Shown here: in pieces, positions 6,691 through 7,801 of the stretch
Layout of the letters: each line of letters begins with the position of its first letter
Position numbering within the stretch: the stretch's first letter is position 1
NCBI RefSeq assembly: GCF_003334305.1
Contig: NZ_QOWS01000002.1
From: Escherichia coli
GTDB lineage: Bacteria > Pseudomonadota > Gammaproteobacteria > Enterobacterales > Enterobacteriaceae
Length of the DNA stretch: 64,000 nt
Strand: one strand, 5' to 3'
Program-made: the position numbers and the translations under genes
The notes under the pieces: generated by a model
The model's input: the letters and a program-made list of their open reading frames with translations, nothing else
Database searches by the model: none
Told to the model about the DNA's origin: nothing

Positions 6691-7626
6691 TTATTTCACT
6701 TCAACCACATTCAGCCGTAACTCATCCAACTGATTTTCATCTTCTTCTGGCTGCCAGCCCGCCGGTTGTAGTGGGATCTCTTCGCGATCAAACGCCAGAT
6801 CACCCCCGTTAACCACTTCAGAACCGTGGGTAATGCCTTTGAAATCGAACAGGTTGGTATCGCACAGATGCGACGGCACCACATTCTGCATCGCGCTGAA
6901 CATCGTCTCGATACGCCCTGGATAACGTTTATCCCAGTCACGCAACATGTCAGCAATCACCTGACGTTGCAGGTTAGGCTGTGAACCGCACAGGTTGCAC
7001 GGAATAATCGGGAACGCTTTTGCATCGGCAAATCGCTGAATATCTTTCTCGCGGCAGTAGGCCAGCGGACGAATAACGATATGTTTGCCATCATCGCTCA
7101 TCAGTTTCGGAGGCATACCTTTCATCTTGCCGCCGTAGAACATATTTAAGAACAACGTTTGCAGGATATCGTCACGATGGTGACCCAACGCGATCTTCGT
7201 CGCCCCCAGTTCCGTTGCGGTACGATAAAGGATACCGCGACGAAGGCGAGAACACAGTGAGCAAGTGGTTTTGCCCTCTGGAATCTTCTCTTTCACGATA
7301 CCGTAAGTATTCTCTTCAACAATCTTGTACTCAACGCCCAGCTTTTCAAGATACTCGGGCAGAACGTGTTCCGGGAAGCCCGGTTGCTTTTGATCGAGGT
7401 TAACAGCCACCAGCGAAAAATTGATTGGCGCGCTTTGCTGCAAATTGCGCAGAATCTCCAGCATGGTATAGCTGTCTTTACCCCCGGAGAGGCAAACCAT
7501 GATGCGATCGCCTTCTTCAATCATATTGAAGTCAGCAATGGCTTCGCCCACGTTACGACGCAGACGTTTTTGTAATTTGTTCAGGTTGTATTGTTCTTTC
7601 TTACTAATTTCTTGATTTTGCGACAT
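6691..7626 (-). CDS. ttcA: tRNA 2-thiocytidine(32) synthetase
   Basis: 311-aa ORF with PP-loop SGGKDS and CxxC motifs (CSLCSRL, CNLCGS). Confidence 0.9.
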
Positions 7627-7765
7627 TTAAAAGCGACTCAATTCGTTATATGGCATCAGAAGAGTATGCGTCATGCCGGAACGCCCAGCATAAGAAATCT
7701 GATATAAAAACTGTGGCGTGTATGGTACGGATTAGAGGGGAAAATGTCAGCACATTTGCGAAATG

Positions 7766-7796
7766 AATCAAAAAGCCCGCAGCAATGTGCGGGCGT
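7766..7796 (-). terminator. intrinsic terminator downstream of uspF
   Basis: Minus strand hairpin GCCCGCA/TGCGGGC followed by CTTTTTGATT. Confidence 0.55.
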
Positions 7797-7801
7797 TAGT
7801 G

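Follow-up and report, generated by a model that had tools for sequence, protein, structure and literature searches.

The question raised by this stretch of Escherichia coli DNA, a window of 64,000 bases to which all unqualified coordinates below refer, is why two genes that are far apart in K-12 lie next to each other. Rac is known to lie between ttcA and ttcC' (Liu et al. 2015, Sci Rep 5:16074, PMC4632033), and in the window ttcA and uspF are separated only by a short spacer. The first-pass annotation, working from the K-12 map, took this arrangement for an unoccupied Rac attachment site and proposed that ttcA probably carries its ancestral 5' end rather than one supplied by a phage. There are thus two issues to be settled: whether the junction is indeed an empty attachment site, and whose DNA encodes the beginning of TtcA. 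A third issue, whether the site was never occupied or has been vacated, is taken up after them.

The window and the corresponding region of K-12

All 64,000 bases of the window are matched, at 100.000% identity, by positions 2250266-2314265 of NZ_CP028767.1, the sequence of strain A7, a wild strain from orangutan faeces. Strain RM10042 is also 100% identical over 1.9 kb, with SNPs and a 3.3-kb indel elsewhere. The annotation of the identical A7 sequence consists of core genes alone, from abgA to ydcL, and its sole mobile-element feature is an IS200/IS605-family tnpA pseudogene at 63522-64000, a frameshifted copy downstream of ydcL at the window end, where K-12 has IS609. No integrase, excisionase or other phage gene is annotated across the 64 kb of the A7 sequence, which is identical to the window. 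Around the locus of interest the gene order is zntB, ynaL and dbpA on the plus strand, followed by ttcA, uspF, ompN and ydbK/nifJ on the minus strand.

Several other features of the window were recorded in passing. At the junction 25858/25859, within the paa (phenylacetate) cluster, 3.3 kb has been deleted relative to K-12 (1453242-1456549) and RM10042. The lost DNA comprises paaABCD, the divergent promoter region and the 5' ends of both paaZ and paaE, and remnants of paaZ (24214-25857) and paaE (25799-26809) are left. This deletion junction occurs in one of 5426 complete genomes, namely A7 itself, which probably cannot degrade phenylacetate. At 34372-34383 the ydbA autotransporter pseudogene with IS2D and IS30C (K-12 1465063-1474003, about 8.9 kb) is absent, and the distance from paaY to pdxI in the window is 230 bp. 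The gapC gene (50090-51091, minus strand, 1002 bp), a pseudogene in K-12, is annotated in A7 as an intact type I glyceraldehyde-3-phosphate dehydrogenase. The small RNAs McaS, FnrS, MicC and RydC and the sokB antitoxin (by hokB) all lie at K-12-syntenic positions (1334-1429, 4807-4924, 9735-9855, 51821-51884 and 52444-52595) and are ordinary.

Both genes that flank the spacer match curated equivalog models over their full length and above the cutoff. TtcA scores 513.6 bits against the NCBIfam equivalog NF007972 (cutoff 272), with residues 3-290 covered, and its close homologues carry the precomputed Pfam domain PF01171. The motifs CLSGGKDS, CSLC and CNLC can be read directly from the translation; they correspond to the PP-loop SGGxDS motif and the CxxC cysteines, whose roles are established for the TtcA family of PP-loop ATPases. 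UspF matches the equivalog NF011581 over positions 1-144 of 144, with 303.3 bits against a cutoff of 166. The features of the locus are collected in Table 1.

Table 1. Features of the ttcA-uspF locus in the window
Feature	Position	Strand	Basis or description
ttcA, tRNA 2-thiocytidine(32) synthetase, intact, host-type 5' end	6691..7626	-	ORF of 311 aa; WP_000081418.1; same coordinates in the A7 annotation
First 17 codons of ttcA; segment displaced by Rac and left beside uspF as K-12 ttcC	7576..7626	-	50/51 nt identical to K-12 ttcC
attB core of Rac-family integrases, 26 bp, TTGTTCAGGTTGTATTGTTCTTTCTT	7577..7602		Identical in window, K-12 attL and K-12 attR (three-way alignment)
Minimal shared core, 15 bp, TTGTTCAGGTTGTAT; encodes YNLNK on the minus strand	7577..7591		Identity common to K-12 Rac and Rac-SA53
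Native ttcA-uspF spacer, exactly 175 bp	7627..7801		Collinear with the K-12 ttcC-uspF spacer (99.6% across 7577-8400)
Probable native ttcA promoter; -35 CTGACA (7750-7745), -10 TACCAT (7727-7722)	7714..7750	-	Consensus scan; weak, 9/12 positions
uspF intrinsic terminator; 7-bp GC-rich stem, 6-nt loop, five T	7770..7794	-	GCCCGCACATTGCTGCGGGC (7794..7775), then TTTTT
uspF, universal stress protein F	7802..8236	-	144 aa; NF011581; annotated in A7

The K-12 annotation bears out the map used by the first-pass annotation, which had placed about 23 kb of Rac between ttcA and uspF with the intR end beside ttcA. In K-12 MG1655 the order is ttcA (b1344, 1411013-1411948), Rac, the ttcC pseudogene (b4638, 1434958-1435008) and uspF (b1376). 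The feature labelled "cryptic prophage Rac" spans 1411899-1434958, or 23,060 bp; intR (1412000-1413235) lies 51 bp from the ttcA start, and ttcC is a fragment of 51 bp beside uspF. The first-pass annotation had named one outcome that would speak against it, that the two genes adjoin in K-12 as well. This was not found, and the idea can be set aside altogether, since annotation and alignment alike put 23 kb of Rac between them.

Alignment of the K-12 Rac boundaries to the window by blastn locates the junction closely. The left flank of K-12, 1410722-1411941, matches 6400-7619 at 99.2% identity, and the right flank, 1434959-1435783, matches 7577-8400 at 99.6%, so that both alignments share the 43 bp from 7577 to 7619. 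No extra or remnant DNA was found between the K-12 flanks in the window by blastn with the K-12 Rac region. Because the flanks overlap with nothing between them, Rac DNA is simply absent: the window shows the arrangement of K-12 without Rac, the two flanks meeting at the attachment site. The separation of ttcA and uspF by only 175 bp is likewise exact to the base.

Attachment site, 5' end of ttcA and upstream spacer

The first-pass annotation had suggested that an attB core be sought in the 5' region of ttcA, and a core of 26 bp is present there (Table 1). The GenBank record of the Rac-SA53 prophage (KU052037) annotates a 26-bp att at the same position, at both of its ends. On the host side, the attR of Rac-SA53 agrees with the window at every base; the Rac-SA53 attL has ATC in place of TGT at 7592-7594, and departs there from both attR and the window. 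Given this difference, the core common to both prophages is only 15 bp, and we infer from the aligned sites that strand exchange takes place within 7577-7591. In the 64-kb window the 26-mer, allowing up to three mismatches, has a single match, at 7577, where none is expected by chance, and the 15-mer, allowing one mismatch, likewise matches only at 7577. No duplicated core of the kind formed by an attL and attR pair was found in the 64-kb window.

The sequence to either side of the core shows which arm of the lysogen the window resembles. To the left of 7577 it follows K-12 attL. From 7603 to the ATG at 7626, where attL and attR match imperfectly, the window agrees with attR at each difference, and no phage-type base occurs within 7603-7626. 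Indeed, across 7577-7666 the window is identical to the attR of both K-12 and Rac-SA53, and both attL versions differ from it at the diagnostic positions. The phage collection held no independent attP from a free phage. All six records found there are prophage excerpts or incomplete genomes: two retain host ttcA (one of them also dbpA), three start inside the att region beside the integrase gene, and one is a weak match within the integrase gene. Judged by its identity to functional sites, the attB of the window would be a ready landing pad for phages of the Rac family.

The alleles of the TtcA N-terminus follow the same division. The 14-letter N-terminus given by the first-pass annotation reads as claimed in the ORF translation, and the comparison that it had proposed, with K-12 TtcA and the ttcC fragment, comes out in its favour. 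The first 17 residues of the window protein are all identical to the translation of K-12 ttcC, and the same 17-codon segment is identical to Rac-SA53 attR. K-12 TtcA begins with the phage-supplied MQENQQITKK and departs from the window at residues 2, 3, 6 and 8; the only other difference between the two proteins is at residue 290 (G290 in the window, C290 in K-12). The K-12-type codons of ttcA are physically linked to intR. In all three sequences, those of the window, K-12 and Rac-SA53, the window-type codons physically adjoin the native spacer on the uspF side. It is this linkage that shows the 5' end of ttcA in the window to be the host's own. The proposal of an ancestral, non-phage 5' end is supported in this sense, with "ancestral" resting on linkage to the native spacer.

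A decision on the ancestral N-terminus was also sought in TtcA proteins of Enterobacterales outgroups, and this approach was uninformative. The first nine or so residues are hypervariable, the stretch that follows is invariant, and the att core lies exactly at the boundary between the two. Starts resembling MSQNQ and starts resembling MQENQ are both present in other genera, and residues 2-9 vary freely. The outgroup N-termini are too variable, and so do not prove the window allele ancestral.

The spacer that accompanies the host-type codons was originally described as containing just a uspF terminator. The terminator part of this description stands: a terminator-like hairpin directly follows the uspF stop codon, with a fold of -14.1 kcal/mol and a z score of -3.77 against shuffles. 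The "just" does not, as a promoter-like site within a conserved 21-nt block is there as well. The region holds a single promoter-like site, fewer than the mean of 2.9 for shuffled sequences. The block, TAATCCGTACCATACACGCCA (7734-7714, minus strand), shows no differences between E. coli and two Pectobacterium loci, even though outside it the spacer can be aligned only poorly. The predicted -10 element lies inside the block and the -35 element beside it, and the block region probably represents either the native ttcA promoter or a binding site for a regulator. In K-12 the block is orphaned beside ttcC and separated from ttcA by Rac.

Taken together, these observations lead to the reading that the first 17 codons of A7 ttcA almost certainly contain an unoccupied attB for lambdoid prophages of the Rac family. 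This reading builds on the observed collinearity with K-12, the core, the allele identities and the commonness of the empty state (see below). As we picture the process, about 50 bp of attP in a Rac-family phage would imperfectly duplicate the 5' end of ttcA, and in lysogens such as K-12 the tyrosine integrase IntR would recombine attP with the short YNLNK-coding core (7577-7591/7602). After integration ttcA would retain a complete reading frame, its codons 1-16 would be supplied by the phage, and the DNA upstream would be that of the phage, with intR 51 bp away. The host's first 17 codons, promoter region and spacer would be stranded about 23 kb off as ttcC beside uspF. In the window nothing of the kind has taken place: ttcA retains its native start and the 175-bp spacer upstream, which holds the probable promoter, and its immediate neighbour is still uspF, complete with terminator.

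Occupied, empty and decayed forms of the site

The behavior of this site in K-12 has been studied in some detail, and the window fits what was found. Excision of Rac alters four N-terminal residues of TtcA, a consequence of the imperfect match between attL and attR, and excision from K-12 yields experimentally exactly the TtcA' N-terminus seen in the window (Liu et al. 2015, PMC4632033). The same study reported the TtcA' N-terminus in 14 rac-free E. coli and Shigella strains and the K-12 type in 13 lysogens, and termed TtcA' the "ancient copy" (PMC4632033). The K-12 delta-rac strain of that work, in its TtcA' state, thus has the same locus, core and TtcA N-terminus as the window. The window differs from it in being the natural state of the wild strain A7, not a laboratory excision product, and in having G290 where K-12 has C290.

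Other prophages use the same attachment site. It is occupied in the strains that carry Rac-SA53 (KU052037) and the O157:H7 prophages CP-933R and Sp10, and is empty in the window. The surrogate 5' end supplied by Rac-SA53, MQENQKNTKKEIYNL, differs from that of K-12 Rac, hence the shared core of 15 bp. A decayed, locked-in remnant of Rac type, inserted at the same point in ttcA, is found in phylogroup B2 strains such as F11. In F11 it comprises an attL, a 231-bp fragment of the integrase 3' end and a DUF1627 fragment in about 2.3 kb of debris (L009 4200-6526), none of which is present in the window. In F11 the attR/ttcC segment and about 95 bp of native spacer have been deleted, homology to the window resumes at 7722, and the TtcA start is of phage type. 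A remnant of this kind may explain the "CFT073 exception" of Liu et al.

The empty form of the site is by no means rare. A contiguous 1.9-kb segment spanning dbpA, ttcA, uspF and ompN is present in 2488 of 5426 complete E. coli genomes. Among non-contiguous genomes the best match ends at 7619 in 15 of 16 members of an evenly spaced sample. The K-12-type junction between ttcA and intR was counted in 1880 of the 5426, and a shortened version of this junction, the form present in F11, is carried by about one sixth of an evenly spaced sample. The empty site is thus one of two common states of the locus and accounts for about half of E. coli genomes.

What remains is the history of the site in A7. 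Precise excision by Int/Xis restores attB exactly, so the window is compatible both with a site that was never occupied and with one from which a prophage has been excised, and the sequence does not separate the two. That an earlier prophage was lost by precise excision is a possibility that we consider unlikely, though one to be taken seriously. Rac is proficient in excision, its removal from K-12 regenerates exactly the sequence of the window, and more than half of the complete E. coli genomes lack a contiguous ttcA-uspF region, which suggests that prophages often have the opportunity to integrate here. That said, excision of this kind leaves no mark and therefore no positive evidence of its own; the site is empty too in all the genomes closest to A7, which match it at 100% identity over 25 kb, and none of the bases in 7603-7626 is of phage type.

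A less tidy departure can be imagined as well, in which a prophage recombined away through its imperfect 50-bp repeats at a point beyond the integrase core, or was removed by an illegitimate deletion, and left a scar. Such states do occur in other strains: F11 retains attL and the 231-bp integrase fragment and has lost attR, and in three contigs the site is empty and the start of TtcA is chimeric. For the window, however, this route is highly improbable, and the alignment refutes it here, as the sequence is of host type at all positions that distinguish the alleles, the native spacer is complete and no remnant DNA is present. An unoccupied attB with the host-type 5' end of ttcA therefore stands as the preferred description of the window.

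The three contigs deserve a closer look in their own right. In each of them (L012, L013 and L014; 2961-3075, with the ttcA start at 3001) uspF, a 175-bp spacer and ttcA follow one another, and TtcA starts with MSQNQQITKK, in which codons 1-5 of host type are joined to codons 6 and 8 of the K-12 Rac type. Recombination within the imperfect repeat but away from the core would produce such a pattern, which is possibly a footprint of prophage loss; an old polymorphism would be the alternative. No exact chimeric attB was found in RefSeq complete genomes with a 39-nt BLAST query, a provisional result because the query is A-rich and the low-complexity filter may cut sensitivity. Its only match, NZ_LT615378, was rejected as an assembly artefact with Ns at the polymorphic positions. 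In this K-12-sized assembly (NZ_LT615378.1, 1090-1860) the ttcA 5' region and spacer are duplicated around a run of Ns, and the Ns stand exactly where attL and attR differ; the duplication is probably a read consensus from a population mixed for Rac excision.

Similar variation in other genera was also considered. The "MQ..." and "MS..." forms of TtcA in Pectobacterium were entertained as a replacement of the 5' end at the att site, and this was discarded: the upstream DNA is homologous in both loci, with a single-base offset, as expected of ordinary alleles. The bacteriocin genes upstream in one of these loci lie farther from ttcA. An enterobacterial contig (L019, 3440-3620), whose TtcA is 91% identical and starts with MQEIQKNTKK, has a Rac-type phage arm directly upstream of ttcA. 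Gene calling gave no integrase at this arm; its nearest upstream prediction, at about 690 bp, is a gene for a DUF4765 protein of 1140 aa. Phage-driven variation of the TtcA N-terminus in other genera is a weakly supported idea. Starting from the position of the att core at the edge of the hypervariable residues and from the chimeric empty sites, one could go further and suppose that Rac-family phages, by integrating, excising and being lost imprecisely over and over, have diversified TtcA N-termini and swapped the ttcA promoter across the Enterobacteriaceae, a notion that we regard as doubtful; were it true, the window allele would merely be one state in a cycle.

Meaning for ttcA in Rac-free strains

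The whole interpretation of the empty site has already been published (Liu et al. 2015, PMC4632033), and the window is one more strain to which it applies. Beyond correct annotation the importance of the finding is small. The junction marks the window as coming from a Rac-free E. coli, in which TtcA is the host-type (TtcA') allele under its own upstream region. The allele that it carries has a published phenotypic correlate, as the TtcA alleles differ in a fitness assay under carbenicillin stress (Liu et al. 2015, PMC4632033).
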